Virus record (IMG/VR): IMGVR_UViG_3300010282_000006
Coordinates: 74,315-115,129 of that record
Length of the DNA: 40,815 nucleotides
Origin: a virus
Lineage: Duplodnaviria > Heunggongvirae > Uroviricota > Caudoviricetes
Reading direction: 5' to 3' (one strand)
Positions within the stretch are counted from its first letter, which is position 1. Each line of letters starts with the position of its first letter. The notes below the pieces were generated by a model. The model had not been told where the DNA came from. It did no database searches and saw only the letters and a program-made list of their open reading frames with translations. Shown in pieces: positions 4,585 through 34,785 of this stretch. The translations under genes were made by a program, and so were the position numbers.

Positions 4585-7400
4585 CTGGAGGCGTCTACAT
4601 CGTGTCGGCAGACGCGAAGGATCTCTTTCTTGCCAACTACTCCTCAGAGCGTTGCGCCGGCTATACGGTGAAGTACAGCTCTGATGGGAATGCTGGTGAG
4701 TATAATACAAAGCGGTTTATCAACACATTGGATTACAGTCTTGACCTCATCAAGCTGCGCGAAGTATATGAGAAGGTTTACCGACGCATGGACTTTACGT
4801 TCAACAAGCGTGGTAAGGAATACTGCCGCCGTGTGATCAACGTGACGTTCAAGTATAACATCAAGGAGTTCAATCGGTTCTCAGGCAATACCTATGTTAA
4901 ATTCGGATATTTGCCGAGTGACGTGGAGCTGCGCGACGGCGTGTGCGTGCGTGACGGAGAGTTGCTGGCGGTGCGTGTGGACGAGCCGGTGAAGCATCCG
5001 ATTGACAATGCAATTCTTGGCAAATGTTTCGCGTTTGAGGATGGCATGTATCGCCTCGGCAAACAGATGAAGGTGATTTTTACGGTGGCGCAGCTTCGCG
5101 AGAGGCTGTATCGGGATGGGTTCCGATGTGACGGGATCGACTTTTGCCGGTTTAAGAGATCCAGCGGTTCGAGCCGCGTTGGAAAGTGCCTTTTCATTGA
5201 CAAAGACCTGTATCGCCGGATGCACAAGTGGGAGATGTGCGGATTGACGGTGAAAGACGGGCAGGAGGTAGATCTTGCAGCGTTGGAGGCGTACATCTCG
5301 CTGACGTTGAGCAGCATCATCGACACGATTCCCCTGCGTCCTGAGAACTTCCTTGTGATTGATGACTACAAGAGCGCTTTCCGTGATCGAGCCGTCGTTT
5401 CACGCATTGGCGCAGACGGATGGTTGCAATCGAAACCGGAAGAGGTGGACGTTGAGAATAGCATTTGGGATGGACAATCTCTGATCGAGAAGGATGCGAT
5501 GGGGGCGTATCAGAATCGCGGCATGATCCTGCTGCGCAACCGATTCTTCAAATCCGCTTGCTTCAACGCCAATATCCAGCAATTCTTCCGCGATAACGGC
5601 ATTACTGAGATTTCTCAACTGCACGGATTTACGCTGGCGAAACGTGTGGAAGATATCAAGATCATTACGACGCCGAGCAGCATCAAGTATGTGAAATTCG
5701 GGAGCCTTGAACGGTGGCTGCGTCTCTTGGATGAGGATGGGGACTTCGGCGTGGTGAAGCACGAGAAGCCTACGCACTTTTTTGATGGGCGTATGGTGCA
5801 AATCCACTATCAGCTTCTCAACACGTTGCAGCTTTCGCAGGCGGACGTCGATGAGCTGGTAAAGCCTGCGCTTTCGTATCTGCAAATGATTCACGATGAC
5901 CCCGCAGTTCTGCGCTATCACATTCGTTACAGCGGAGAGGATGAGGAGATCCACGACGCGGCAACCACGAACGATGTGATATACCAAATGCTCGGTGTGA
6001 GCGACAGGTTTTCCCAAACGCGGCTTTACTATGACTTTAAGCAGGATCTAACAGAGTCGTTTATGAAGACGCTGCGGTGCGGACACATATTGGTCGATGG
6101 AAATTACTCGACACTGCTTGGCAATCCTGTTGAGATGCTTTTGTCAGCGGTTGGAAAATTTGACGGAACGAGTCAAATTGGCGTCGGGAACGTCTATTCC
6201 AAGCGATTCCAGTTCAACCAAACGCTTCTTGGCAGCCGCAGTCCGCATGTGACGATGGGGAATATTTTGCTGTCAAAGAACAGGGCAAACCCGCAGATCG
6301 AACGCTATTTCAACCTGACGAACGAAATCGTCTGCATCAACAGTGTTGGAGAGAATATTTTGATGCGGCTTTCCGGAGCCGATTTTGACAGCGACACCAT
6401 GCTTTTGACCGATAATCCTATACTTGTGCGCGCGGCTGAGAAAAACTACGGGAAGTTTCTTGTGCCGACGAGCATGGTGGAAGCGAAGAAGGTCGTTCGG
6501 CATTATACATGGTCGGAACAGGCCGATCTCGACATCAAGACGAGCGTGAACAAGATCGGTGAGATCGTCAATCTCTCTCAGGAATTGAATACGCGGCTGT
6601 GGCACACGATCAACGGCGGCGGGACATTTGAAGAGGTTGAGGAGCTGTATTGCAATATTGCAAAGCTGGATGTGCTTAGCGGCATTGAGATCGACAAGGC
6701 GAAAAAAGAGTTTGCGGTGGACAGCATCGGCGAGATTAAGCGGCTCAAGCAGCAGTATGAGATCCGCGATGATGACGGAAGGCAGGTTAAGCCGAACTTC
6801 TTTGGAAAGATCGCTCGCATGAAGGGCTATTATGACAGCGCGCGGAAGAATTATCGCTTTCACGATACGACGATGGACTATCTGCAACACAGCCTGAACC
6901 GTTTTCGGGTGAATCGGAAAAAAGATGGGTTCATCCCGTTTTCCGATATGCTGATTCCGCGTGACGGGTCGATTGGGCTTGCGGTATGGTATCCGCAGGT
7001 GAACCGCATTTTGGAGCTGGTGCGAAATATGCGCGCGCAGATCAGGGCGGTATGGGATGACCGAGAGAGCAGTATGGAAAACCGCGACAGGGCGATGTTG
7101 GTGGACGAAATCCGCAGGGAGTGTTATGACTACATTAAAGCAATTCGCGTCAATCGCAATACGGCGTATCGCTTGCTCCTTGCAATCGAAGAGCCGCAGA
7201 ATAAGGATATTTCAAGGAGCCTTTTCTATATGCTCTTTTCGCTCCCCAATCAATGTTTTCTCGATCTTATTGAGGAAAGCCGCGAGCCGATCATGCTGCT
7301 AGAAGAAGATGATACAGCGGCCGGCAGCATCACGATTTATGGTCGGCGTTTTCGTAAGATTCCATCCATCCCGTGCAAAATATCCGGTGTAGTTTGCTGA
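4581..7400 (+). CDS. yonO: YonO-like single-subunit double-psi-barrel DNA-dependent RNA polymerase (RdRP-like fold)
   Basis: 939 aa; RSSGSSRVGKCLFI, RNRFFKSACF, GSRSPH and catalytic loop LSGADFDSD (6381-6395); SPbeta-like synteny with HU, phosphoesterase and terminase. Confidence 0.8.
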   Translation: MTGGVYIVSADAKDLFLANYSSERCAGYTVKYSSDGNAGEYNTKRFINTLDYSLDLIKLREVYEKVYRRMDFTFNKRGKEYCRRVINVTFKYNIKEFNRFSGNTYVKFGYLPSDVELRDGVCVRDGELLAVRVDEPVKHPIDNAILGKCFAFEDGMYRLGKQMKVIFTVAQLRERLYRDGFRCDGIDFCRFKRSSGSSRVGKCLFIDKDLYRRMHKWEMCGLTVKDGQEVDLAALEAYISLTLSSIIDTIPLRPENFLVIDDYKSAFRDRAVVSRIGADGWLQSKPEEVDVENSIWDGQSLIEKDAMGAYQNRGMILLRNRFFKSACFNANIQQFFRDNGITEISQLHGFTLAKRVEDIKIITTPSSIKYVKFGSLERWLRLLDEDGDFGVVKHEKPTHFFDGRMVQIHYQLLNTLQLSQADVDELVKPALSYLQMIHDDPAVLRYHIRYSGEDEEIHDAATTNDVIYQMLGVSDRFSQTRLYYDFKQDLTESFMKTLRCGHILVDGNYSTLLGNPVEMLLSAVGKFDGTSQIGVGNVYSKRFQFNQTLLGSRSPHVTMGNILLSKNRANPQIERYFNLTNEIVCINSVGENILMRLSGADFDSDTMLLTDNPILVRAAEKNYGKFLVPTSMVEAKKVVRHYTWSEQADLDIKTSVNKIGEIVNLSQELNTRLWHTINGGGTFEEVEELYCNIAKLDVLSGIEIDKAKKEFAVDSIGEIKRLKQQYEIRDDDGRQVKPNFFGKIARMKGYYDSARKNYRFHDTTMDYLQHSLNRFRVNRKKDGFIPFSDMLIPRDGSIGLAVWYPQVNRILELVRNMRAQIRAVWDDRESSMENRDRAMLVDEIRRECYDYIKAIRVNRNTAYRLLLAIEEPQNKDISRSLFYMLFSLPNQCFLDLIEESREPIMLLEEDDTAAGSITIYGRRFRKIPSIPCKISGVVC

Positions 7401-7617
7401 AAACACGCAGAAATGTATGGATTTTGCAAGGTTAGTTCTGAACAAATGTGCGGATACCGCCAATGTTTTGTGACTGGACAGGAGATCGCAGAATTTCCCG
7501 ATACAGGATGGAGGGGCGCTTTTTTCACCTGCTGTATGTCTTCGCGCGAGCGCGCAAGCGTAATGTGGTAAAAAACGACCCGTATCGTCCAAATCTATTT
7601 GAAAAGGATGTAGTTTT

Positions 7618-7857
7618 GTGATTTCTATTACCAAGGACGAGAAGATGCTTTTGGAGAAGCTGTATCCGCAGTACAAGTATCCGCGCACGATGAAGCAGCG
7701 TACAAAGCGCCATCATTATTTCTGCACGGAGTCCGAGGAACTGATGCGCGCGATTGCCGACACGAACAGCGCTGCGGCAGAGCTGGTTCGCGAGTTTGAC
7801 CGGCGAAGAGCAATGCGCGAGCGCCGCAGGCGGCACGATAGGAGTCGTGATCGTTGA
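7618..7857 (+). CDS. small basic hypothetical protein
   Basis: GTG start after AAAAGGA; 79 aa. Confidence 0.6.
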   Translation: MISITKDEKMLLEKLYPQYKYPRTMKQRTKRHHYFCTESEELMRAIADTNSAAAELVREFDRRRAMRERRRRHDRSRDR

Positions 7858-8051
7858 TGGCGTATCAGGACAGGATTGAGCGATATGAACACGCCACGAT
7901 CGACTGCGCCGACGGTACGCTGACGGAGTATCGTGACGACGCGGCCAGATCGTACGCGATCGACGAGATACTCAGACGTTGGGACGGCGTGCCGGACGTG
8001 ACCATTACGATCGAACGGCGGCGTGAATTACCGCCGACAGAAGGAGGGTGA
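7857..8051 (+). CDS. small hypothetical protein
   Basis: Coupled overlaps with both neighbours. Confidence 0.6.
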   Translation: MAYQDRIERYEHATIDCADGTLTEYRDDAARSYAIDEILRRWDGVPDVTITIERRRELPPTEGG

Positions 8052-9283
8052 CGGAGGACGTGAATCCCAATTATGAGCGCAGAGACGGTGAGGGTGCCTA
8101 TGAGTACGGGCTTCGGCTGATTGCGACGAAGGTAGAGGAGCGACCGGAGGATCTGGATTGGCAGGACATCGTTGAAGCGATTGGCCTTGATTGCCACCGT
8201 GACAGTTTGCGCAAGGCTGCGTCTGTGACGCCGTACTCAGGATATGCTGTGATGCAGTATTTCAAAAAGAAGACGGGCTCGTCCTCTGACGCTTCGCGAG
8301 ACGCCTATATCGACGAGATCGAGGAGAAGACCATCAAAATGCGTAAGGAGGCCAAGCGATTTTTCGATCAGCGTCGCGAGTTCAACAAGCTCGTGGATCG
8401 CTTGGGACGCGAGGAGCATCTGGAGGATCGCCTCGTTGCGGCGGCACAAGAGCTGAATTGCTTATCCCCGCTCGCAGTCGAGAAGGAGAGCCTTCATTGC
8501 AGCGATGGAGAAGAGGCCGTGCTTGTGCTCGCCGATTGGCACTATGGTATGGTGACGGATAATATCTGGCAGCATTATGACACGGATGTTTGCCGAGAGA
8601 GAGTGGAAAAGCTCGTGACCGAGACGATTAAGAGATTGCGGCTGCATCGTCCGAGGCGTCTGCATGTCGTTTTGCTCGGCGATATGGCGCATGGCGCAAT
8701 CCACACGAGCGTTCGAGTGGCGAGCGAGGAGCTTGTTTGCGAACAGGTGATGCAGGTGAGTGAGATCCTTGCGCGATCAATCGCCGCTCTTGCCGACGAG
8801 GTTGAGGAAACCGTTGTTCATGCGACGTATGGGAACCACCTGCGTACGGTACAGAACAAGAGCGACAGCCTGCACGCAGACAATATGGAGCGGTTGATCC
8901 CGTGGTGGCTGGAGCAGCGGCTTATGGGGCGTGGCGATGTCGTTTTCCCGGAGGCGGAATACTACGAGTTTTTGTACTTTGACGTCTGTGGTTATCATGT
9001 GTGCGCAACGCATGGCGATCTCGACCATGTGAAGAGTGCCGGCCGCACGCTCAACACGCTCTTCCAGAAGAAGTACGGAACCGGAATCGACTACGTTCTC
9101 CTTGCCGATAAGCACCACAAGGAAGAATTTGAAGAGCTTGGCGTCGAGACGATGATCGTTCGTGCGCTTTGCGGCGTAGACGACTATGCCAACGACAGGC
9201 GACTTTATTCGATACCGGGACAGCTCTTACTATTTTTCAAAACCGGCATTGGTGCCGACGCATACTATCAAATCAGGCTGTAG
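8048..9283 (+). CDS. calcineurin-like metallophosphoesterase with N-terminal helical region
   Basis: DWH, GDMAHG, GNH, THGD, ADKHH metal-binding motifs. Confidence 0.8.
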   Translation: MTEDVNPNYERRDGEGAYEYGLRLIATKVEERPEDLDWQDIVEAIGLDCHRDSLRKAASVTPYSGYAVMQYFKKKTGSSSDASRDAYIDEIEEKTIKMRKEAKRFFDQRREFNKLVDRLGREEHLEDRLVAAAQELNCLSPLAVEKESLHCSDGEEAVLVLADWHYGMVTDNIWQHYDTDVCRERVEKLVTETIKRLRLHRPRRLHVVLLGDMAHGAIHTSVRVASEELVCEQVMQVSEILARSIAALADEVEETVVHATYGNHLRTVQNKSDSLHADNMERLIPWWLEQRLMGRGDVVFPEAEYYEFLYFDVCGYHVCATHGDLDHVKSAGRTLNTLFQKKYGTGIDYVLLADKHHKEEFEELGVETMIVRALCGVDDYANDRRLYSIPGQLLLFFKTGIGADAYYQIRL

Positions 9284-9309
9284 GCAGCCATAAGGAAGGA
9301 ATGATACCA

Positions 9310-9627
9310 TTGACCAAGGAAGACCTGACCTCGGTGATGTCCGAGATGGGGTACTGCAAGGATCAGGCCAATGAGTTTATCACGGAGCTGTTTCGCACCA
9401 TCGGAGAAACGCTTGTGCGTGGCGAGTCTGTGCGCATCCGTGGTTTCGGGCTTTTTGAGGTTAAGACGCACAAGGGGCATTTGGCGCACAACGCCATCAC
9501 TGGCGAAAACCGTATGCTGGAAGCATATCCGGTCGTTTCGTTCCGCCCCGGCGACAACCTCAAGTCCGCCGTGAGGAGCGGCGACGCCGAAAAGCTCAAA
9601 GTGCCGTCCAAAGCGGCAATTCAATAA
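9310..9627 (+). CDS. hup: HU/IHF-family histone-like DNA-binding protein
   Basis: GESVRIRGFGLFEV...HNAITGE...YPVVSFRPG signature; TTG start after AAGGAAGGA. Confidence 0.85.
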   Translation: MTKEDLTSVMSEMGYCKDQANEFITELFRTIGETLVRGESVRIRGFGLFEVKTHKGHLAHNAITGENRMLEAYPVVSFRPGDNLKSAVRSGDAEKLKVPSKAAIQ

Positions 9628-9735
9628 TTCGTATTCACTAATCATGCCCTCGGAGGTCTTCGGACTGACCGTGAAAGCTCAACGTTTGCGGACGCATGAG
9701 AAAGGCGCGGGCTTTATTTATCTACGGAGGAGTTT

Positions 9736-9963
9736 ATGCCGAGAATCGCAAAGGGGCGTCAGTCCGGCGAGAGGACTGTGCGCAATTTGCCTGCGAGCGA
9801 GAGCGGGTACGGCGTTCGCTATATTGCCAAGTCCGGCGCGGAGTATTGCGTCAGCCATTGTCCTGAGAAGGATCGGTTTACGCTTTGGCGCGTGACAGAC
9901 GGCGGATATGTCAGAATACAGACAGCGCCTACGCCGCAGGAGCTTTATGCGCTTGCAAAATAA
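9736..9963 (+). CDS. small hypothetical protein
   Basis: GGAGGAG RBS; 75 aa; ends 3 nt before tRNA-Tyr. Confidence 0.65.
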   Translation: MPRIAKGRQSGERTVRNLPASESGYGVRYIAKSGAEYCVSHCPEKDRFTLWRVTDGGYVRIQTAPTPQELYALAK

Positions 9964-9966
9964 TAC

Positions 9967-10052
9967 GGGAGAGTGGTAGAGCGGTCAATTACAGCAGACT
10001 GTAAATCTGCCGCCTTCGGGCTGCGATGGTTCAAATCCATCCTCTCCCACCA
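9967..10052 (+). tRNA. tRNA-Tyr(GTA), CCA encoded
   Basis: Acceptor GGGAGAG/CTCTCCC, anticodon arm GCAGA-CTGTAAA-TCTGC, long variable arm, GGTTCAAATCC T arm, ends ACCA. Confidence 0.95.
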
Positions 10053-10057
10053 AGTAT

Positions 10058-10133
10058 TGCGGGATATAGCAGAGGTTAGCTTACCAGCCTCATGAGCTGG
10101 AGGTCGGTGGTTCGAGTCCACCTCCCGCAACCA
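10058..10133 (+). tRNA. tRNA with CAT anticodon (Met; fMet-like body), CCA encoded
   Basis: Acceptor TGCGGGA/TCCCGCA, anticodon arm CCAGC-CTCATGA-GCTGG, GGTTCGAGTCC T arm, ends ACCA. Confidence 0.9.
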
Positions 10134-10288
10134 TAGCCGCGTTCGATTAACGCAAGGGCGGCGTTCGCCAGAGAGATGCCACATGGCGCTCAGGAGTTTC
10201 GACGCGGCAAAATGATATGACCGACCTGCCATGTGTAGGCGCGGTGGAGCCGCCGCGCAGACGCGAGCTGCGCGGCGGTGTGAACTTC

Positions 10289-10326
10289 ACGTCACGGATT
10301 CCGTATGGTTTCCGTGACGTTTTTTT
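10289..10326 (+). terminator. intrinsic terminator closing the tRNA region
   Basis: ACGTCACGGA / TCCGTGACGT stem followed by a T run. Confidence 0.75.
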
Positions 10327-10359
10327 CATGTCTTGCTCAGTGAGAAGGGAGGTGTCGCT

Positions 10360-11328
10360 ATGGCGGTGAAAAAGCAACTGAAAAAGACAGTTCCGAAAAT
10401 CAACAAAAACGCGAAGCCAAGCGACATCGTTCCGCAGACTGTTTCTGACGAGTCATACCGTTGCTCCTGCTGCGGGCATAAGTATCCGAAGCAGGAAGGG
10501 AATTTCAATGTTTCCAAATCCCCGATCTACAAAGGGAATAACGGCTATATGACCATCTGTAAGCGCTGTATCGGACAGCTTTTTGACCAGTACGTCGACT
10601 TTTTTGACAAGGATGAGGATGCTGCGATGGAGCGCATCTGCCAGATTACGGATATGTATGTGGACGATACGGCATGGGCGGCAAGCCGCAAGGTCAGCGC
10701 AAACCGCAGCCGTATGAGCGCGTATGTGTCCAAGCTCAATCTCAACCAGAGCACGGTCGGAGCGACATACGCGGACACGCTTTTGCGGCGCTGGGAGGAA
10801 GAGATCAAAAACGCGGAGAGTATTGAACAGGCGGCAAGGAACGGCGCGGACGAGGACGCTGCGCGTCGGTTCGGGCTTGGTTTTTCCGACAGTGATTACG
10901 ATGCGATGCAGGCGGAGTATGACAGTTGGGTGCAGAAGGAAGGAAAGCCCATCGACAAAAGACAGGAAGAGCTTTATGTGACGATGTGCTTTCTGCGGCT
11001 CAACCTGCAAAAAAGCGTGCAGAACGGTAGCGCCGGCGTCGGCACTGTTGCAAATTCCTACAAGAGCTTTATCGAAGCGGCCACGACTGAGATCGAAGAT
11101 CGCAAGCGTCTTGCCGAGCAAGAGGCTGAGATGAAGCCGGTCGGTATGCTTTTCAAGACCATTGAGCAGTACACGCCCGCTGAGTTTTATAAGGACAAAA
11201 AGCTCTACGCAGATTTTGACCAGCTTGGCGAGTACATCGAGCGGCACATGGTTCGACCGTTGCGCAACCTTCTGACGGGAACGAAAGAGCTGGATAAGGA
11301 GTTCAGTCTTTCCGGAGCGGAGGAGTGA
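10360..11328 (+). CDS. putative terminase small subunit with N-terminal Zn-finger-like Cys pairs
   Basis: CSCCG...CKRC; directly upstream of and coupled to TerL; strong GGGAGGTG RBS. Confidence 0.5.
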   Translation: MAVKKQLKKTVPKINKNAKPSDIVPQTVSDESYRCSCCGHKYPKQEGNFNVSKSPIYKGNNGYMTICKRCIGQLFDQYVDFFDKDEDAAMERICQITDMYVDDTAWAASRKVSANRSRMSAYVSKLNLNQSTVGATYADTLLRRWEEEIKNAESIEQAARNGADEDAARRFGLGFSDSDYDAMQAEYDSWVQKEGKPIDKRQEELYVTMCFLRLNLQKSVQNGSAGVGTVANSYKSFIEAATTEIEDRKRLAEQEAEMKPVGMLFKTIEQYTPAEFYKDKKLYADFDQLGEYIERHMVRPLRNLLTGTKELDKEFSLSGAEE

Positions 11329-24821: not shown

Positions 24822-25358
24822 ATGAAGGCAATGTCAATCAGCGAGGCGCTTAGATATGCGAATCAGAAGATCCGTCCGATGGTCAACGACGCATTGGGCG
24901 GGGAAGTCCTTGATACCGTCGCCGAGGTTGAGCACGCGAAGATCCAGAGTGAAGTGTACGACAAGCACAAGCCGAAGCATTACAAGCGGCGCGGCGATCG
25001 CGGCGGCCTTTCTGATATGGAGCACAATCTTGCAATCAACAACGCATCACTCAAGCTCGGCGCGTTGTATGTTGAGAACGTGACACCGCCCAATCCGTTC
25101 AACAACGGCGTCGGCGTGCGACCAATCGACGGTGTAGGCGGGTACTCATCGACAACTCCGGATGAGCCGATTGCCGGACTTGTTGAGCGTGGAACCTACA
25201 ATCCGAACGGGTACGGATACGATTACTGGTCTGATGCGTTTGCCAGACCGTTTATCGCGAAGACGCGCGCGGCGCTGCGCGGCGGGAAAGCGCAGAAAGC
25301 GCTTGCGGACGGACTCAGACGGAATGGTCTGACGGTTATTACTAAGAAAGGACGGTGA
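24822..25358 (+). CDS. putative neck/tail component (HK97 gp10-like)
   Basis: YKRRG..GGL and RPFIAKT motifs; coupled to TMP. Confidence 0.4.
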   Translation: MKAMSISEALRYANQKIRPMVNDALGGEVLDTVAEVEHAKIQSEVYDKHKPKHYKRRGDRGGLSDMEHNLAINNASLKLGALYVENVTPPNPFNNGVGVRPIDGVGGYSSTTPDEPIAGLVERGTYNPNGYGYDYWSDAFARPFIAKTRAALRGGKAQKALADGLRRNGLTVITKKGR

Positions 25359-28300
25359 TGAGCTTGGCTGAAAATGACGATCTGATGATAGTGGTAAGGA
25401 CGCGGCTGGAGGCTGACGAGGAAGCGTCGGCACAGCGAATTTCGGCGCAGCTTCCGTCCATTGCGGCAAAAATCAACGAGAAGAGCAGCATCAAGGTCGG
25501 TGTGACGCTGGATGAGCGCAACACCGACAGGCTGCAAAACAGCATTTCCCAGCAGCTTTCGCGCATACATGTCGATCCCGTCAATATTGGCATCAAGGTA
25601 ACGGGTGATGCAAAGAAGATGCTGCGAGAGGCAATGGCCGGCAGCGGTATCGACGAGAGCTCCGAGCTGATGAAGTCCATGACGAAGAACCTCACCGGCA
25701 TGGATGTGCAGGTCGGTAAGATCCATGCGCAGTGGGTGAAGGTGGGAAGGCAAAAAGAGCGGCTGCTACAGCTCGACATCTACGGGCGCGATGCGCTTGG
25801 TAAAGAAGTTCTGCTGATGCAGCAGTATGCGCAAAACGGGCGCAAGGTTGATGAGCAGGTAAAGGACGTCACGTTGAATATTGATAAGCTCAACAGACAG
25901 TCCGAGCAGGCGGCGAGAAAAGAACAGCGCGACAACGAAAACCGCCTCAATTACATTCGCGCGCAGAGCGACGCCCTTGAAAAACTTAAGGCGCAGTATT
26001 TGTCGCCGAAGGACGGTCTTCACGGAGAGAATCTGGAGAGCGCCGAGTCGCAATATGCGAAAATATCTGCGAGGCTTGATGAGCTGCGCGCAAAGAACGG
26101 CGCGTTGACGGACGAGGAAAAACGCGGCATTGACGGCGTTATCGCCGAGATGCAGCGCGAGATACAGACCATGAAGCAGGTGGAGTCCGTCGAAGAGAGC
26201 GCGGCGCGCAAGTCAAAAAGTGAAAATGACGCGCGCGTGGCTTCGCTTACCACGTTGTCGTCAAAGCTGGATGCCGTACAGAAGAAGTATCAGGGCTTGA
26301 CCGGCGTGAAGGGCGTGCAGGGTGAAGGCCATCTGAGCGAGCTGAACCGGAAGTATCAGGAAATCTTTGATACGATTACGCGGTTGCAAGGTGCAACTGG
26401 CGCGCTGAGCCAGACGCAAAGGACGGAAATTGACGCGCAGATCAAAGAACTCGACAGGCTAAGCGATCAGTATTACCGTGTTGAGCATGTGGCGACGCAG
26501 CTTCGCACCAAGAATGTCTGGGAGGTCAATTCCGATTATGCGAATGAGCTGGACGTCTACGCGAAGAAGCTGCAAACGTCCGGGCTTTTGACGAAGGATT
26601 TTGAAGAACGTATCGCCTCGCTTCGCAATCAGCTTTCAACCGCGTTTGACAGCAAGAGCCTGACCGACTTTGCAGATCAGTTTGACCGCTTGAAGGGCGC
26701 GGTCGGATCGTTCAAGGCCGGACAGGAGCTTGAGGCGACGATCGGGCGCATCAACAGCGAGATGGCGGTCATGCCGTCTCAGTTCCAGGCGGCGGAAAGA
26801 CGTCTTGAAGGCATAATTCATCCAACCGAAACGCTTGAGGCGAACATGAGGCGGCTTCGGGATCTTTCGGCGCAGGTCAACAGTGAGCAGGACGCCAACC
26901 GCAAGATTGAGGCGTACAACCGGCTGAAACAGACGCTTGCGCTGGTAAATACCGAGATGGCGGCGCTGACGCGAACGCAGAATACTGGACTGCGCGACGA
27001 GAAGCTGACGGCGAATTTGGAGAAGGCGAAGGCGGATCTTCTGACGGTCGGAAGAACGTGGAGCGCGCTCAAGGCTGACAAGGGACTGAATTTGCAGTTT
27101 GAGCAGCTTTTGGCGAATCTCGACCGCGTGAACAATGCCGGAGATCTTTCCAAGTGGCGCGCGGAGTTCAACGCCTTTAAGAGTGAGGTCAAGGCTGCCG
27201 GAAAGAATGTGCAGTCGCTTGGTGACATCCTCAAGAACAACCTTGGCAAGGTTTTGCAGTGGGTGAGCGCAACAACGCTTTTATTCCGTGCGATAAGGTA
27301 CTTGCGGCAAGGCATCCAGACGGTTGTTGACCTTAATACCGCGATGATCGACCTACGCAAGGTGACGAAGGCAACCGGCGAAGAGTACGAGGCGTTTTAC
27401 CGCCAGTCGAATGAGACGGCAAAGCAGCTCAATCTGACGACGCAGGAGGTCATTTCGCAGACGGCCGAGTTTGCCCGATTGGGATATGCACTTGAGGATG
27501 CCTCGAAGCTCGCGCAGAACGCAGCAATCTTCAAGATGGTCTCTCCCGGCATGAGTCAGGAGACGGCGGTTGACGGACTTATCAGCATCGTCAAGGCGTA
27601 CGGCATTGAGGTCGAAGACACAATGGATGGCATCATCTCGAAAATCAACGAGGTGGGTAATAAGTTTGCCGTCAGCAACAACGACCTCGTTGAGGTGATG
27701 ACGCGCGCGTCGAGCGCGATGTCCGCAGCCAACAATACGTTTGAGGAGACCGTTGCGCTTGCGACGGCTGCTATTGAAATCACGAGGGACGCCGCCACGA
27801 CGGGCAATGCCCTGAAGACGCTTTCCATGAGGATTCGCGGCTACGACGAGTCCACGGAGGAATATTCCGAGGACGTTGCCGTTCTGACCGGCAAAATCGC
27901 CGATCTTACAAAGGTCGCAGGGAATGGCGGAAAGGGCGTGAGCCTCTTTGAGGTAGGTGATCCCAACACATATCGTTCGACCTACGCGATCTTGCAGGAC
28001 ATCGCGGCGATCTGGGACGAGTTGACAGACAAGAACCGCGCGCAACTGCTGGAAGCTCTGTTCGGTAAACGTCAGGCGCAGGTTGGCAGCGCGATCCTTT
28101 CCAACTTCTCTCAGGCAGCCGACGCGATGGACAAGATGGCGGACAGCGCAGGAAGCGCCGAGCGCGAGATGGCGAAGGTTATGGAGAGCGTGGAGTACCG
28201 CGCGAACGCCCTCAAGGAAACTTGGGTAGGCATTGCGCAGAATATATTCCAGAGCGACGATTTGAAGCTGGGGATTTCCCTTCTCCAGACTATCTCCAAT

Positions 28301-28396
28301 GTTATTGATACGCTGACCGACAAGCTGGGATTGCTTGGCACGGTCGGCATCGCGGCGACTATCGCGTCTTTGCGTAAGTTGAACGCGACGGCGGGT
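25355..28396 (+). CDS. tape measure protein, exon 1 (1014 codons; unspliced frame reads on to stop at 28471)
   Basis: Long coiled coil plus TMP core (FEETVALATAAIEITRD..GNALKTLSMRIRG); ends at U of the P1 U.G pair. Confidence 0.85.
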
Positions 28397-28609
28397 GAAC
28401 CCAAAGTGACGGGTTTCATGATTGCGCCCGCCTATACCCCGGTGGCGACACGGAACGAGCTTGCGGCATGACCGCAGGCAAGGGGGTATTGGAAAAACCG
28501 ACGAACATGGCTCCGCGTGGAGCTGCGAGTTTAGATCATTCTCGCACGGGAAGCCCGAAAGGGTAATCCGCAGCCAAGCTCATTATACAAGCAGTCTCAT
28601 AAAACAGAA

Positions 28610-28642
28610 CAGAGAGCCGGTGCTACTTTCACCGGCTCTCTG
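28610..28642 (-). terminator. intrinsic terminator for antisense peptide gene
   Basis: 13-bp perfect stem CAGAGAGCCGGTG/CACCGGCTCTCTG followed on minus strand by TTCTGTTTT. Confidence 0.75.
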
Positions 28643-28656
28643 CCGCAGTCTGCGCA

Positions 28657-28740
28657 TTACCTGTCGCGCCTGCTGAGAATTGCGTCGTAGAGAGCCATCG
28701 AAATGAGGTTCAGTACGATGATGTTGATGTACTCAGCCAT
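28657..28740 (-). CDS. 27-aa hydrophobic peptide, type I toxin-like (MAEYINIIVLNLISMALYDAILSRRDR)
   Basis: GGAGGTG RBS 6 nt before ATG; single hydrophobic helix plus charged tail; own promoter and terminator. Confidence 0.65.
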   Translation of the reverse strand: MAEYINIIVLNLISMALYDAILSRRDR

Positions 28741-28830
28741 AGCGTTCACCTCCGTCACGTCCGAAGTGTCGGGCGAATCGCAGAGCGATTGAAGCACAGA
28801 GGCTTGTACGGAGGACAGACTGACAAAACG

Positions 28831-28859
28831 ATTATACTGCGACAGGCAGAGCTTGTCAA
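28831..28859 (-). promoter_or_regulatory. perfect sigma-A/sigma-70 consensus promoter (antisense, inside intron P6 loop)
   Basis: Minus strand TTGACA (28859-54), 17 nt, TATAAT (28836-31). Confidence 0.85.
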
Positions 28860-28999
28860 ATTGTATGGTGAGAGGGTTCAGAGAGCATAATGTCGGCACG
28901 GTCTACGGATTGTGATGGGGTGCTCCAAATCCAACCGCCCGCCAGAAATGGCGGGCGGTCAAAATGATATGCGGTCAAGCCGCCGCAGATCGAAAATGG

Positions 29000-29683
29000 C
29001 TAAAATCTACATCCACAGTTGTTGCATTTCCACGTTTTGCCTATGTCACCGGCTCCAAAAATGCCAAAGGCGTAGACCTTGAGAAAGCTGCCGGTCTTGG
29101 AGATTTTCGTCAGACTGGTAGAGCGGCAATAAGGGCAGGTAGGGATGTTGGCTGCAGGTTTTGGTACGGCGGTTGAAATCGGTTTCCATGTCGAACGATC
29201 AACCAGATCCTTGACGGGTGCTGGAGGTTCGCGCGGGGGAAGGTCGCGAAGAGAGCGGCTACGGTTGAGCTGACCGTATAAGTCATTTAGGTGAGCTTTG
29301 TATTCTTGAGACAATTTATCGCCGATGTTGCGAGGAAAAATCAGTTGCTCAAAATGATCCGCTTCTTTTTCCAAAACGCCGCTCGACTCTGATTGCGGCA
29401 AGTCGATTTCAACGTATGGCGCGTTGCAGTTACACATTGGCTTGCCATTTTTGCTTGGCTGAGCCTCGTTGTAGTAATACTCTCTCGCGCATTTGGCGCA
29501 GACCTTGACACGCGGCTCCTTTGATGAAAGCTGGAACATTGCAACCTGCGACAGAAGTTTTTGGTGGTAGTCGCTTTGCTCCTTCTGCTTGAGATGGTTC
29601 GCAATCGGAAAGCCGCAGTGCGGACAGGACACCGCTGCGGAAGACACTTGCTGATTGCACTCAGGACACACGATAAGCGCCAT
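29000..29683 (-). CDS. triple zinc-ribbon protein (antisense, inside intron P9 region)
   Basis: CPEC..CPHC, CAKC..CNC, CPYC..CNNC; AAAGGAG RBS 10 nt before ATG 29683. Confidence 0.8.
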   Translation of the reverse strand: MALIVCPECNQQVSSAAVSCPHCGFPIANHLKQKEQSDYHQKLLSQVAMFQLSSKEPRVKVCAKCAREYYYNEAQPSKNGKPMCNCNAPYVEIDLPQSESSGVLEKEADHFEQLIFPRNIGDKLSQEYKAHLNDLYGQLNRSRSLRDLPPREPPAPVKDLVDRSTWKPISTAVPKPAANIPTCPYCRSTSLTKISKTGSFLKVYAFGIFGAGDIGKTWKCNNCGCRF

Positions 29684-29713
29684 AAACCACACGCTCCTTT
29701 CTGCTTGCTATGG

Positions 29714-29742
29714 ATTATATCACTAACACAACGGGATTTCAA
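29714..29742 (-). promoter_or_regulatory. sigma-A promoter with extended -10 driving the zinc-ribbon gene
   Basis: Minus strand TTGAAA (29742-37), 17 nt, TG-n-TATAAT (29719-14). Confidence 0.8.
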
Positions 29743-29784
29743 CGATAATCTTCGTATTGATCACACGAGGGTTGGGATGGATTG

Positions 29785-32700
29785 GCAATTATGCCCGTTG
29801 TGGAAGCGCTTCGAGCAACGCAAATTGTTTACGATGACACCATTGCGGCACAGGCGACGTATGCTACACAGCTTACAAGTCTGGATGTTGTTCATCAAAA
29901 AGCGGTGCTGAGCCAGATGAACCTCAACAGTACGCAGCGTGAAGCTATTTTGAATTTTGCAAAGTTGTCAGCCGCAGGACAATCTTATACCGTTGGCACT
30001 TTGGCGTTGGCAGCGGGTGTTGATAAGGTTAGGCTTGCCGAGTCTTTACAGCTTGCCGAGACCGAGCAGTTGACGGCAGAGACGATCGCGTGCGCTGTTG
30101 CGACTGGAGCGCTTCGTGGGGAAGATGCGCAGCTCGTGATTCAGTTTTTGACACATAAGGCGGCGACGGACGGCGTGACAGCATCGACGAATCTGATGAA
30201 CATGTCGCTCAAGGAGACCGCCGCGCTGATGTTGGCGACTCCTATGGGCTGGATCACCATGCTCACCATGCTTATCCCGCTGCTCATTACCGCAGCCAAG
30301 AAATTCAAGGAGTTGTATGACGCGGCGCATCCGACACTTCAGCAGATGCAGGACGACCTTGGTGATGCAGAGAATGAACTGGACGAACTGGATGGCAAGC
30401 TGGACGAGAACAAAAAGCGGATCGCGGAGCTTCGCGCACTGCGCGATGGAGGCACGATTTCCATTGTGGAGAGTGAGGAGCTAAAGCGGCTCGAACGCGA
30501 GAACGAGCTTCTTACCCAGCAAATTCAGCTTCAGAAAGACCTGATTGCCGCGAGGCAGAATGACATTTATACGAAGGCTGCAGAGGATGCGGGCGCATGG
30601 CTCAGTGACAGCGGCTACGAGATCAAAGGTCATGGCAACTCTGAACGGCAGGAGCAGGCGTACACCGGCGCTGGCGGCCTTTCTGCAGCAATTAACGACT
30701 ACAAGACCGCCAAGGCTGCATTCGATCAGGCGGTTGCTAACGGAGCTGCCGCTGCGACGGACGCTGAAAAGAAGAAATTCAAAGAAGCCGCAGACGAGTA
30801 CAAGGCGTCTATGGAAACCGCGCTTGCGCGTATGGTCGATTTGCAGGACGAGGCAATCAAGCTGCGCAATGCGCTCAATCCGGACGATCCGGAATCCGCA
30901 GGGCTGATTCGAGAACTCGATCTCGCGCTTGACCGCATTGCTGTGCTGCAAGATCCTGAATCTGCGCGCAACTCCATTTTCGGTCGCTTCTTTGAAACGG
31001 AAGCAGACCTCACCAACGAGAAAATCGCTGAGTTCAACACATATCTCAGGGAGCTCGGCCTGATTACGGAGGACATCCCGAAGGACGAGCTTGCCGATAT
31101 GCTCAGAAACACAGGCGATGCAGCGGAGGACGAGGCGGACAAAATCAAGGGGCTTATCGACGTGCTCGATAAGTTTGGCGTCGAGTCCAAAGAAATCTAT
31201 GCGCACGGCGGCAACGTGGATCTTCTTGACCGGCGCGTGGTGGAAGTCACCAACGCCAACCTCGGCAAGGTTCAGACGCACGACGCCAACGCACAGGTCG
31301 GCGACCGCATGACGGTGCTCTCGAAGACAATTCAGCACGGTGACGCCGCGCTGGTTGTGACGCCGATTCTCCCGAATGGCGAAATTTTGTCCGACGCAGA
31401 GCTTGACAAGTATGTCGAAAAGGTCGTTAAGGCGGCAAAGAAGGACAAGAGTACCAACTATCAGGCATACGACCAGAATGGTGTCTTTCTCGGTGTGTTT
31501 GGCGATCACGCCACATTTGAAAAGAACAACGAGGAAGCAGAGCGGTTTGCCGAAAGGCTGCATGATATCCATGAGGCAATTCTGGAGGCCGGAAGCGGCA
31601 GCGAGCTTTCCGAGCTGGTTGCGGAGCTGCAAGACCTGACGGAGTACACTCCGAGCGTTTCGACGTTGGCGGAGAAATTTGCCGACGCCGAGGGCAAGGT
31701 TGAAAAGCTCGGCAAGGCACTGCAGGAGTTCGGCAAGGAAGGTTCGATTGCAGCGGACACACTCGCTGAAATCGGCAAGGACTTCGGCGATTATGAGAGC
31801 TATGAAAAATTTGCCAAGGTGCTGATGGACTCCACCTCTACGATGGAGGAGGCGCAGGCGGCGGCTGACGCGCTGGCAAGCGAGTTTATGAACTCGACGA
31901 CGGCGCTTGACATGCTGCGCGAGGGCAATGCCGATCTTGTGAAGGCGATGCTCGAAAAGATTGGCGTGACGAACGCGGATGAAGTTGTGGAATCCCGCCT
32001 GCGGATCGTGCGGTTGGAAGCGAAGGTCGCGGCGCTGGGCTTGGCGGACGCCGAGTGGAGCGTTGTCGAAGAGAAGCTGCGCGAGATCGGCGTGACCAAT
32101 GCGGACATTACCGCGATTGAAGCATTGCGCAAAAAGCAGATTGAGGCGAAAATCGCCACAACCGATTTTGCAACTGCGAACGCAAGCACAATCGCTACGC
32201 TCATTCAGATGGCAAATGCCGCTGGCATTGCCGGAAAGCGGATGGAGATCCTTGCGCAGATGCAGCGTGTTGAGGCGTCTGAGACAGATAAGACGTCCGC
32301 TCGTTATGGCGCATATATGGCAGATGCAAAGAGGCGGCTTCTGGAGGGCTTCACTGACGATTTGAAGGTGGAGTTGCCAGAAATCAAGGTCGTTGTGCCG
32401 AAGGCCAACGGTTCCGGCAGCGGCTCCGGAAGCGATTCTTCCAAGAAGGAAACGGAAAAGTATTTCGCCGAGATCGACCGCTTCCGCGATGCGGTCAAGC
32501 GGCTTGCAGATGCGCAGGAGGAAGCGGAGAGGCTGAACGGCGAGCTTGGGCGCACGGAAGGTCTGTGGGATCAGGTCAAGATTCACAAATCTCTCGTGGA
32601 CACCTACGAGAACGAGCAGACGGCGTTGCACGATCTCAACGAAGAGCGCCGCAAAGCGATTCGAGAAGGGGTCGAGAAGCTGCAAAATCTTGGCTTTGAC

Positions 32701-34785
32701 GTCATCTATGACGCAGAGACCAACGACCTCTTCATCAATAACCTTGAACATCTCAACGATCTTGCCACGACGGATCTCAACAAGTACGAGACGATGGCTG
32801 ACATGTCCGTCAATATTCTCGGTCAGTACGACAACGCCCAAGAAGCGACCAACGGACTCATCAAGGACACCGAGGGCATCATCGACAACATCACCAAGTT
32901 CAACGACGCCAACAAGGAAGGTTCGGAGACGTGGTGGGAGAGACGCGACGCCATTCATGCGTCGAAACAGAGCATCATCGACGATCTTAAACAGATCACG
33001 GAAAACGCGCACGACGCGGTGGATGAAATCCAAAACGTCTATGACACGCTGCACGCGGCGGCAGATGAGTTTGCGGCAAACGACGGCTATTTGACCATTG
33101 ACACCTATCAATCCATTTTGCAGCTTGGCACGCAGTATATGGCGTATCTTTACGATGAAAACGGTCTTCTTGTCATCAACGAAGAGCGTATTCAGGCTGT
33201 GATTGCGGCAAAGACGGAACAGCTTGCGCTGGAACAGGCGCTCACCTATGTGGATCGGCTGAGACTGGCGCTGGAAAAGGGTTCTATTGAAAATCTGAAC
33301 GAGCTGCTGTATGCGACGCAGGATGCGACCGATGCGACATGGGATTTGGTGTACGCCAACCTTAAACTGCTCGATTTGTCGGATGATCAGTTTGCGGCGG
33401 CGATGCACAACATCAATGCGATTCGCTCGCTTGCGGACGCTGCGGTTGCCGGAATCGGAAAGAGCGCCGGAGCGTTTGCCGACTCGCTCAATGAGATGAA
33501 GGACGGGTTGGACAGTATCCTTCGGTACACGATGGATATGCTCAGGCAGCGGATCGAGGATCAGATCGACGCGCTTGAGGAGCAGAAAAGCGCCTACGGC
33601 GATTTGATTGACGCGCAGAAAGAAATGCTGCGCAATACCAAGAATCAGAACGATTATCAGAAATCGGTTGCGTCCAAGCTCAAGGAGATGGCGAAGCTCC
33701 AAAAGGAGATCGCCTCTTTGACAACGGCGGCGGAATCAGGAGACCGAAGCGCGGCTGCGAAGCGCGCGAAGCTCCAAGAAGAGCTTGCCGAGCTGAGCGA
33801 GGATCTTGCGGACGAGCAGAACGAGCACGCTATCGAAGTAGCCGAGAAAGCGCTTGACAAACAGCAGGCAGCTTTTGAGGCGGAGAAGGATGACGAGATC
33901 AAGACGCTACGAAATAGTATTTCTTCTCAACAGAAGCTCTACGATATGGCAATTAGCTATATTGAAAGCCGTTGGGACAAGCTCTATGGTGAGCTGATCG
34001 ACTGGAACACTGAGTACGGCAGCGACCTCAACAGCGATATCGCGTCCGCATGGGACAAAGCGTATGAGGCAGCAGAGCGATACGGAAGCTATGTAAGCGC
34101 GCTGGGAAGCATTGACGCGGACATTGCCGCAACGAGCGGCGGAAACAGAGGAAATACCGCCACTGGCGTTAATACTGCTGTCGGCAGGACGAGCACTTCT
34201 GGCAATGAAGCGATGGCGACGGCATGGGTCGAGCAGATGAAAGCGAACAGCGCGGCGTGGCACAGCGCGAGCGATAAGCGCAAGGCTGATTTGGCTGCTG
34301 AAAACAAGCGTATCGCTAAAGAGGAGCTTCCGGAATGCGGCGTAATCGCAGACATCGGAGACGACGGTGTGTGGTATCTCAAAAACGGGAAGAGGCTCTA
34401 CGACGTCTATCACAGCGGCGGAATCGTTGGCGGTGACGCTTCGCTTAAGCAGGACGAGCTGTTCGCAAAGCTCCAAAAGGGCGAGATGGTCTTATCGCGT
34501 GAAATGGTAGATCGGATGATCCGGCACTTTGATATGCTCAAGAAGCTGGGGGAGTCCATTGCGAGCCGACCGATGGACGGTCGGCTGCTTGCGCAAGATC
34601 TTGCAGCGCTTGGCATCGGCAAGACGGTGAATAACGTGACGAGCAACGAGAGCAGCCGGCCTGTGAGCATCGTGTTTGGCGATACGCATATCAGCGGTGC
34701 GGATAAAAGTACGGTTCAGCAGCATGTGATGCTTACCGAAGGTATGAAGAAGGAAATCGCGCGTTGGCTTGGTTTCCGTATGTAG
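29785..34785 (+). CDS. tape measure protein, exon 2 (1666 aa; spliced product ~2680 aa)
   Basis: No RBS before the ORF-track start; helical/coiled-coil sequence; C-terminal YHSGGIVG..KGEMV TMP motif; in frame with exon 1 after splicing. Confidence 0.85.
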   Translation, partial: AIMPVVEALRATQIVYDDTIAAQATYATQLTSLDVVHQKAVLSQMNLNSTQREAILNFAKLSAAGQSYTVGTLALAAGVDKVRLAESLQLAETEQLTAETIACAVATGALRGEDAQLVIQFLTHKAATDGVTASTNLMNMSLKETAALMLATPMGWITMLTMLIPLLITAAKKFKELYDAAHPTLQQMQDDLGDAENELDELDGKLDENKKRIAELRALRDGGTISIVESEELKRLERENELLTQQIQLQKDLIAARQNDIYTKAAEDAGAWLSDSGYEIKGHGNSERQEQAYTGAGGLSAAINDYKTAKAAFDQAVANGAAAATDAEKKKFKEAADEYKASMETALARMVDLQDEAIKLRNALNPDDPESAGLIRELDLALDRIAVLQDPESARNSIFGRFFETEADLTNEKIAEFNTYLRELGLITEDIPKDELADMLRNTGDAAEDEADKIKGLIDVLDKFGVESKEIYAHGGNVDLLDRRVVEVTNANLGKVQTHDANAQVGDRMTVLSKTIQHGDAALVVTPILPNGEILSDAELDKYVEKVVKAAKKDKSTNYQAYDQNGVFLGVFGDHATFEKNNEEAERFAERLHDIHEAILEAGSGSELSELVAELQDLTEYTPSVSTLAEKFADAEGKVEKLGKALQEFGKEGSIAADTLAEIGKDFGDYESYEKFAKVLMDSTSTMEEAQAAADALASEFMNSTTALDMLREGNADLVKAMLEKIGVTNADEVVESRLRIVRLEAKVAALGLADAEWSVVEEKLREIGVTNADITAIEALRKKQIEAKIATTDFATANASTIATLIQMANAAGIAGKRMEILAQMQRVEASETDKTSARYGAYMADAKRRLLEGFTDDLKVELPEIKVVVPKANGSGSGSGSDSSKKETEKYFAEIDRFRDAVKRLADAQEEAERLNGELGRTEGLWDQVKIHKSLVDTYENEQTALHDLNEERRKAIREGVEKLQNLGFDVIYDAETNDLFINNLEHLNDLATTDLNKYETMADMSVNILGQYDNAQEATNGLIKDTEGIIDNITKFNDANKEGSETWWERRDAIHASKQSIIDDLKQITENAHDAVDEIQNVYDTLHAAADEFAANDGYLTIDTYQSILQLGTQYMAYLYDENGLLVINEERIQAVIAAKTEQLALEQALTYVDRLRLALEKGSIENLNELLYATQDATDATWDLVYANLKLLDLSDDQFAAAMHNINAIRSLADAAVAGIGKSAGAFADSLNEMKDGLDSILRYTMDMLRQRIEDQIDALEEQKSAYGDLIDAQKEMLRNTKNQNDYQKSVASKLKEMAKLQKEIASLTTAAESGDRSAAAKRAKLQEELAELSEDLADEQNEHAIEVAEKALDKQQAAFEAEKDDEIKTLRNSISSQQKLYDMAISYIESRWDKLYGELIDWNTEYGSDLNSDIASAWDKAYEAAERYGSYVSALGSIDADIAATSGGNRGNTATGVNTAVGRTSTSGNEAMATAWVEQMKANSAAWHSASDKRKADLAAENKRIAKEELPECGVIADIGDDGVWYLKNGKRLYDVYHSGGIVGGDASLKQDELFAKLQKGEMVLSREMVDRMIRHFDMLKKLGESIASRPMDGRLLAQDLAALGIGKTVNNVTSNESSRPVSIVFGDTHISGADKSTVQQHVMLTEGMKKEIARWLGFRM

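Follow-up and report, generated by a model that had tools for sequence, protein, structure and literature searches.

A group I intron appears to interrupt the tape measure protein (TMP) gene in the 40,815-nucleotide (nt) stretch of phage DNA analyzed here (the window; positions 74,315 to 115,129 of the virus record IMGVR_UViG_3300010282_000006), and to carry two predicted genes on the strand opposite to that of its host gene. A functional, gene-carrying group I intron in the TMP gene is our overall explanation of the locus, to which we assign a probability of roughly 85%; we hold the existence of the intron itself with greater confidence still. The unusual part of this element is its cargo.

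Exons of the tape measure gene

The plus strand of the window contains two long open reading frames (ORFs), 25355–28471 (1038 amino acids (aa), with a PhageMin_Tail domain) and 29782–34785 (1667 aa), which are parted by 1.3 kb containing two minus-strand ORFs. The original prediction, made by a model from the letters of the sequence and a list of its ORFs, had taken the two as exons of one gene. When position 28396 was joined to position 29785 in silico, the result was an in-frame ...NATAG/AIMPVV... (the slash marks the junction) and a TMP of 2680 aa, as predicted. A search with the exon-2 protein returned four split relatives (1670–1739 aa) and three longer proteins (2240–2580 aa), the latter having PhageMin_Tail as well as the exon-2 match. 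The spliced TMP aligned with the uninterrupted homologues P0007 (2580 aa) and P0006 (2568 aa) as a single high-scoring segment pair in each case, over 2446 columns at 55% identity and over 2438 columns at 53% identity, respectively. The junction was spanned in the alignment, where ...ATAG/AIMPVVEAL stood opposite ...SASIMPVITSL of the intron-less homologue. These comparisons support the assignment of the two ORFs as predicted exons of a single TMP gene across a group I intron.

Between phages, the exons are 64–71% identical at the protein level, but window positions 28389–28582 and 28868–29001 are ~90% identical at the DNA level, and the DNA conservation of the intervening sequence begins at P1. 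The exon-1 ORF as called continues for 25 codons into the intron, to a UGA (28469–28471) in the loop of P2.1, so that ribosomes would halt before reaching the catalytic core. This UGA (in the loop CAUGA) is also kept by close relatives; more distant copies have their stop further on, as in locus L035, where it lies in the loop of hairpin A.

Table 1. Features of the TMP gene, its intron and the intron-borne genes (window coordinates; the two strands of a helix are separated by a slash).
Feature	Position	Strand	Remarks
TMP exon 1	25355..28396	+	1014 codons; PhageMin_Tail at aa 686-904
Group I intron (predicted)	28397..29784	+	1388 nt, from the base after U28396 through omega-G29784
TMP exon 2	29785..34785	+	1666 codons plus stop; first 9 bases in P10
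P1	GCGGGU 28391-28396 / GCCCGC 28426-28431	+	U28396.G28426 at the 5' splice site
P1a	28397-28402 / 28411-28416	+	inside the P1 hairpin 28391..28431
P10 guide CAUGAUUGC	28417-28425	+	9 bp with exon-2 29785-29793
P2	28435-28440 / 28483-28488	+	encloses P2.1; 4 compensatory positions in P2
P2.1	28459-28466 / 28472-28479	+	within P2
P3	CCGACG 28498-28503 / UGUCGG 28891-28896	+	4/6 positions compensatory
Hairpin A	28510-28514 / 28519-28523	+	between P3 and P4; covaries in all clades
Hairpin B	28524-28529 / 28541-28546	+	between P3 and P4; covaries in all clades
P4	CGGG 28547-28550 / UCCG 28567-28570	+	4 bp, invariant
P5	28553-28556 / 28561-28564	+	GAAA loop; A-rich J4/5 and J5/4; Rfam consensus gGGguAAuCCGCAGCC matched
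P6	28572-28575 / 28875-28878	+	2/4 positions compensatory
P6a	28579-28583 / 28868-28872	+	terminal loop L6 contains the cassette
P7	G[A]GAGCAU 28881-28888 / GUGCUCC 28920-28926	+	A28882 bulged
P8	28897-28903 / 28908-28914	+	UACG loop; 3 compensatory positions
P9.0	AAUCC 28928-28932 / GGAUU 29779-29783	+	directly after P7', directly before omega-G29784
P9	28934-28943 / 28950-28959	+	GAAA loop
P9a	28970-28974 / 28983-28987	+	minus-strand reading is the zinc-ribbon terminator-like site with a T-run
L6 cassette	28585..28860	-	276 nt, private to the window lineage, exactly in the P6a loop
Cassette promoter-like site	28859-28831	-	TTGACA-17-TATAAT, 12/12
Cassette putative ORF	28740-28657 (including stop)	-	27 aa, hydrophobic, basic tail; ribosome-binding site GGAGGTG
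Cassette terminator-like site	28644-28608	-	15 bp
Zinc-ribbon gene (P0011, 227 aa)	29000..29683	-	three zinc ribbons; ribosome-binding site AAGGAG
Promoter-like site of the zinc-ribbon gene	29714..29742	-	TTGAAA-17-TATAAT with TG extension, 11/12; -10 invariant in close relatives

Intron RNA and splice sites

Unguided folding of an alignment of five copies with RNAalifold yielded P1, P1a, P2/P2.1, P3, the P4-P5 hairpin, P6/P6a, P8, P9 and P9a in the order of a group I intron (Table 1). The P7 pseudoknot was placed by hand, outside the RNAalifold output. Across 16 helices in these five copies, 98% of the cells pair, versus 35–43% in slid registers, in which the 3' partners were displaced by 1–3 columns, and 12 positions are compensatory. 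When the comparison was widened to 21 distinct copies, down to 65% identity, 89% of the cells still pair (39–43% in slid registers), with 35 compensatory positions. The U.G pair of P1 is present in 21/21 copies, while position 2 of the same helix is C-G in 6 and U-A in 15. P7 covaries as well, at one position (C-G in 8 copies, U-A in 13), and in P3 the pair of strands CCGACG/UGUCGG is exchanged for CAGCCG/UGGCUG. The order of P7, comprising G28881-C28926, the bulged A28882 and G28883-C28925, is invariant in all 21 copies, and G28883-C28925 is presumed to be the guanosine-binding pair, in the classical geometry. All of the elements proposed from the window were present: P1 with its U.G at 28396, the 9-bp P10, P4/P5 with an A-rich internal loop, a P7 containing a bulged A, and P9.0 together with omega-G29784 (the coordinates of P7, P8 and P9.0 in Table 1 are our own placement). 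Pairing over the whole helix set is far above chance. Scans for further copies with 21-mers returned the known relatives plus locus L011 and nothing more, and an 18-mer scan of genome contigs gave 21 matches, all of them chance matches in coding sequence.

Two other pairings were considered and rejected. A J8/7-P7' at AAUGAUAUGCGG, behind a GC-rich hairpin, lacks conservation in L011 and corresponds to the terminator of the reverse-strand cargo. A longer P4 using GCUGCG (28522–28527) is broken in relatives.

The 3' splice site was assigned where a copy's own 9-nt guide pairs over at least 6 bp with an exon start that lies directly after GAUU or AUUU (or a near variant) and G; we estimated 0.05–0.12 chance matches to this rule per locus. 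In most copies only one site satisfied it; altogether, 18 copies have a predicted site. P10 comprises 9 bp in the window and 5–8 bp in relatives, and guide and exon covary between clades, with ...GAUUGC opposite GCAAUU in the window versus ...GAUGU opposite GCAUC in the distant clade. The omega-G follows the P9.0 strand in the same arrangement in the 18 copies. In all of them, the junction is phase 0/phase 0, with exon 1 open to the 5' splice site and exon 2 open from the 3' site. Exon 2 remains open for 729–1767 codons from the 3' splice site, while the other phases close within 1–41 codons, and in ten copies ATG, GTG and TTG are all absent from the first 40 exon-2 codons. Such frames, and the missing start codons, would be difficult to explain if a second protein were translated independently. 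From the comparison of the copies, we consider the core-plus-helix architecture and the junction to be established; splicing and catalysis are predicted activities.

We considered the possibility that there is no splicing at all, in which case the TMP would be supplied as two separately translated proteins and the intervening RNA would have some other role, or would be the regulatory region of the antisense genes. Gene callers do report two or more ORFs in all relatives, covariance models give no significant match, and the window has an in-frame TTG (29782) and ATG (29791) near the start of exon 2. However, the full group I helix set covaries, including P1, P10 and P7, exon 2 is open exactly from the splice site wherever that site was predicted, including the ten copies with no start codon for 40 codons, and uninterrupted homologues run through the junction. 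We regard two separate proteins as extremely improbable.

The preferred reading is thus that of a group I intron, which would act as follows. In the late pre-mRNA, the guide at 28417–28431 would pair with the end of exon 1 to form P1, with the U.G at 28396, and with the start of exon 2 to form P10. The P3-P8 and P4-P6 domains would fold around P7, and P9.0 would place omega-G29784 in the guanosine-binding pair of P7. Two transesterifications would then link 28396 to 29785 and produce a message for one TMP of 2680 aa.

Genes carried by the intron

The original prediction had described two antisense genes with promoter-like sites in the peripheral loops. Both genes were found, together with their promoter-like sites and, in addition, terminator-like sites; the two promoter-like and two terminator-like cargo sites were found on the minus strand only. 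The larger gene encodes a protein, P0011, with an N-terminal zinc ribbon, a conserved middle module (CxxC...CxC...PGVEVDYP...PRNIGDxxSxEYK), a variable linker and a strongly conserved C-terminal ribbon. In each of the 21 distinct copies of the intron, this zinc-ribbon gene has the same place and orientation, over protein identities down to ~25–30%. No copy lacks it, and this suggests that its role is bound to the intron. Full-length relatives of P0011 are 33–43% identical, and the Cys motifs of the family are retained down to 28%. An nhmmer profile of the intron core, run on 80 viral loci fetched via the zinc-ribbon family, matched in 17 of them, always on the strand opposite to the zinc-ribbon gene. 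Three zinc-ribbon relatives were looked up; each is antisense, with a PhageMin_Tail ORF on one side and a large C-terminal TMP ORF on the other, beside a diverged copy of the RNA.

The predicted fold of P0011 has a mean predicted local distance difference test (pLDDT) score of 79. No LAGLIDADG, GIY-YIG, HNH, His-Cys or PD-(D/E)xK motif or fold was detected in the protein, nor any invariant histidine, and the string D122...E127-x-K129 lies in a predicted loop-helix and not in a beta hairpin. Fold searches against the PDB with Foldseek were uninformative, and the best VIA-align hit (Z 4.6) was a helical hairpin. Among the AFDB clusters, only unnamed zinc-ribbon proteins were found, and nothing informative came from Atlas features, NCBIfam or PADLOC. 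Many short proteins of phages and Firmicutes with no connection to introns also contain the N- and C-terminal ribbons.

In about 20 further viral loci, a zinc-ribbon relative lies 0.8–5 kb downstream of a PhageMin_Tail region, in antisense orientation to it. They include L043, L044, L046, L054, L057, L058, L061, L065, L071, L080, L085 and L095 (around positions 6000–11000), and in L043, L061 and L080 the TMP is split at an equivalent place. In these ~20 loci, the intron core was not detected and there was no Rfam group I match. Two of them contain other RNAs at the Rfam gathering level, namely a Fusobacteriales-1 RNA (L057, 8576–8702, minus strand; 73.5 bits) and a skipping-rope RNA (L095, 8755–8838, minus strand; 68.3 bits). 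Both have the orientation of the TMP and are flanked by its upstream piece and the zinc-ribbon gene.

Binding of nucleic acids is common among zinc ribbons, and the intron could be real with the zinc-ribbon protein as its own factor, encoded antisense under its own promoter: either a new site-specific endonuclease or DNA-binding homing protein, or a maturase-like RNA-binding cofactor. The position and orientation of the gene are fixed in every copy while all other cargo varies, and the linkage to the intron persists in spite of the drop in protein identity. The antisense zinc-ribbon genes at an equivalent TMP split without a detected core form the pattern expected of homing endonuclease genes that move between introns, and antisense homing endonuclease genes are known in nuclear group I introns (PMC9548176). 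On the other hand, P0011 has none of the nuclease motifs or folds listed above and no invariant histidine, its D...ExK string is not in the expected hairpin, and its terminal ribbons are common in proteins that have nothing to do with introns. We think it rather unlikely that the protein is the intron's own factor for mobility or splicing; it may simply be the oldest passenger. A function tied to the intron in some way, be it mobility, splicing or maintenance, would fit the distribution of the gene at least as well as a passenger.

The second antisense unit of the window is the L6 cassette. Relatives lack it, with the break exactly between 28584 and 28861. Contigs from two independent DNA runs likewise skip exactly 28585–28860, while a third run has the cassette, which indicates a natural insertion/deletion polymorphism. 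Neither the viral contigs nor the phage's own genome yielded another copy. With its promoter- and terminator-like sites and its presence or absence between related phages, the cassette has the anatomy of a putative moron.

The remaining cargo differs between phages, with up to four additional genes outside the window. In close relatives, the zinc-ribbon gene is followed by a gene of 50–58 aa that is missing from the window, and L011 has a different downstream region. In the distant clade, the predicted introns measure 3.1–3.9 kb and contain sense-strand ORFs, including an aspartyl-protease-like protein. The largest predicted intron of the family (4493 nt; L038, 5200–9692, minus strand of the locus) contains a 402-aa STAND-like P-loop ATPase (AAA_16), ORFs of 117 and 142 aa and the zinc-ribbon gene; a four-gene intron of this size would be unusual for a phage. 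The prediction that cargo would vary while the core is conserved across homologous TMP loci is thus borne out by the relatives. The cargo of the window had also been said to be free of LAGLIDADG, GIY-YIG and HNH motifs, and no match to them was found. More generally, no homing endonuclease (LAGLIDADG, GIY-YIG, HNH, His-Cys, PD-(D/E)xK or EDxHD) was recognizable in any copy, and no cargo protein matched a homing endonuclease, transposase (including the IS200/IS605 type) or known defense family.

Such insertions raise the question of whether the window copy is a formerly active intron, now decaying as a relic in a defective prophage, with splicing disabled by the inserted cargo. The window is part of a 115-kb record that is classed as a provirus with a CheckV completeness of 89%; the copy has the 276-nt insertion in L6 and, in P8, three G.U pairs where relatives have G-C. 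Against such decay, L6 is a usual, tolerated site of insertion and the ends of the insert extend the P6a stem. All core helices of the window copy pair fully, both exons are intact over 2680 codons, and an independent sample also contains the form with the cassette. A relic is therefore very unlikely.

In a functional intron, the host polymerase would transcribe the cargo genes without dependence on the late operon, in the lysogen for instance. The zinc-ribbon gene, in the P9 extension near the 3' splice site, would use its own sigma-A/sigma-70-type promoter and the reversed P9a hairpin as its terminator, and the extra cargo of the window would be a unit of promoter, 27-aa membrane-type peptide and terminator in the P6 loop. 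Everything between the splice sites leaves the TMP message, so that genes could be gained or lost there without harm to the essential gene. The idea of the intron as a "safe harbor" for morons is partly supported in this form: it best fits the variable cargo (the L6 cassette here, ATPase and protease genes elsewhere), but the zinc-ribbon gene, which was present in every copy examined, does not behave as an independent moron. Expression of the cargo, which the original prediction had called expressed, and its function are deduced from sequence and should be read as predictions.

Lineage and comparison with known systems

Several points weigh against the intron as described. In the alignments to the intron-less homologues, there is a 4-residue gap just upstream of the junction, so that homology alone leaves the junction base open; it is P1, P10 and the reading frame that fix it. 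P4 is conserved yet uninformative, being invariant, and is the least certain helix; with only 4 bp, and with atypical hairpins in J3/4, the assignment of the P4-P6 domain is the weakest part of the model. The promoters and terminators are matches to consensus sequences and no more, the 27-aa putative ORF is without relatives, and the strict linkage of zinc-ribbon gene and intron speaks against a mere passenger. Finally, Rfam models failed to recognize the element. At curated thresholds, there was no group I match in the whole window, and with permissive settings (E up to 10) there was none in 28200–30000. RF00028 reached 11.8 and 10.0 bits on L006 and L011, which have a contiguous core, at E about 7 and against a gathering score of 50. 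The original prediction had listed the absence of such a covariance-model hit among the results that would refute it; we give more weight to the evidence from comparison of the copies.

The Rfam consensus for P5'-J5/4-P4'-P6-J6/7-P7 (gGGguAAuCCGCAGCCAAau...aaaAgGUUCAaAGA) is nevertheless matched almost letter for letter. RF00028 fails because the model cannot place a canonical 5' strand of P4, probably as a result of the two conserved hairpins between P3 and P4. To our knowledge, two hairpins in this position are not found in the classical group I subgroups. As judged by its predicted structure, the intron belongs to a lineage that is unrecognized by current models, with the two extra hairpins as its hallmark. 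These introns escape both standard covariance models and gene callers, so that giant TMP genes are annotated as two to four ORFs plus "hypothetical" genes.

Group I introns of bacteria and phages are usually treated as empty ribozymes or as vehicles for homing endonucleases. The copies described here, at least 21 distinct ones from gut and rumen phages, suggest a third use, that of sheltering independently transcribed accessory genes within an essential late gene, to which splicing would remove the cost of the cargo. The arrangement would also mean that late phage RNA and genes expressed from the prophage are transcribed in sense and antisense to each other, and the zinc-ribbon protein, which is invariably present, makes a good candidate for a new activity linked to the intron. 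Taken to its full extent, this would be the first described phage group I intron lineage that serves as a gene-carrying platform: a conserved ribozyme whose permanent companion is an antisense zinc-ribbon gene under its own promoter, perhaps encoding a new class of intron-associated protein, and whose loops gather and swap accessory genes (toxin-like peptide, STAND-like ATPase, aspartyl-protease-like protein), which are expressed in the prophage yet spliced out of an essential virion message. We put forward this full claim tentatively, at slightly less than even odds.

Phage morons are units of promoter, gene and terminator inserted between phage genes. The L6 cassette, and formally the zinc-ribbon gene too, resembles them in its succession of promoter, ORF and terminator and in an orientation independent of the late operon; the cassette, moreover, is an indel between phages that are nearly identical. 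Unlike classical morons, however, the cargo lies inside an intron within an essential gene, and the zinc-ribbon gene is never absent. IStrons, in which a group I ribozyme is fused to an IS200/IS605-type element, occur in Clostridioides difficile and Bacillus, and their transposase cargo mobilizes the element. They share with the present intron a 5' ribozyme core, protein cargo other than homing endonucleases in the 3' part, and an occurrence in Firmicutes, but no transposase family was matched by any cargo protein here.

The TMP gene is already known as a site of group I introns. In prophages of the Bacillus cereus group, such introns are found at three TMP sites (TMP-IVS1, IVS2 and IVS3; Tourasse and Kolsto 2008, PMC2504315); they fall into subgroups IA1/IA2 and contain a homing endonuclease gene or its remnant, or are empty (PMC2504315). 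The present intron is similar to them in its location in the TMP gene of a temperate Firmicutes phage, in P1/P10 recognition, in the use of several TMP sites and in its presence/absence polymorphism. It differs from these IA introns in that it is without P7.1/P7.2, has the two P3-P4 hairpins, is missed by RF00028, and carries antisense, promoter-bearing cargo and not homing endonucleases. The phage introns described in PMC4299906 and PMC12880540 carry homing endonucleases or nothing. The suggestion that the arrangement may be undescribed is overstated as regards an intron in a prophage TMP gene as such (PMC2504315). As to the cargo, searches of open-access text turned up no description of a group I intron, from phages or bacteria, whose antisense genes have promoters of their own and are not homing endonucleases.

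An antisense gene is also present in the nuclear rDNA intron L2066 of Didymium squamulosum, where it encodes I-DsqI, a proven His-Cys box endonuclease (PMC9548176). In both cases a group I intron contains a protein gene that runs antisense to the host gene; that of Didymium is expressed independently. The Didymium intron, however, is eukaryotic, of group IE and in an rRNA gene, while the host gene here is a protein-coding phage gene and the antisense product has no recognizable nuclease motif. In the giant mitochondrial intron ND5-717 of hexacorals and corallimorpharians, core mitochondrial genes lie inside P8, and in corallimorpharians the intron is excised by back-splicing (PMC6545197). Here, too, a peripheral segment encloses genes that are unrelated to intron mobility and would be removed by splicing. 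In contrast to the organellar intron, the cargo is accessory. It is situated in L6 and in the extension of P9, and part of it has putative promoters of its own on the opposite strand.

The likeness to the Bacillus cereus group extends to a conventional-looking element with an HNH-like ORF at another site of this TMP in relatives. This second element, of 1262 nt, is present in L006 (4676–5937) and L003 (about 4646–5922). The corresponding site is empty in exon 1 of the window (27659/27660), with flanks that are 95–99% identical. It contains a sense-strand ORF of 304 aa (DUF2726; PHROG families annotated as HNH/homing endonuclease) and was not detected by Rfam. Its 3' end, ...GAUACAGUCUGAAC...AGAUUG/ (the slash marks the end), resembles those of phage IA2 introns, and the element is probably a second, conventional homing intron.

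Among deposited phage genomes, there was no near match to the window; relatives of the TMP were distant only, and exon 2 had none. The window DNA occurs in bovine gut metagenomes, and SPbeta-type Pfam families (YomU tube, YomN) were found among the neighboring genes in relatives. The host of the intron is most likely a large temperate SPbeta-like phage of the gut or rumen. An IS110-family transposase gene (DEDD_Tnp_IS110, Transposase_20) sits among the tail genes of L007 (19160–20383, minus strand) and is missing from the otherwise similar L003. Elsewhere in the window, two adjacent tRNA genes lie on the plus strand at 9967–10049 and 10060–10127 (Rfam tRNA, 59.1 and 45.9 bits).

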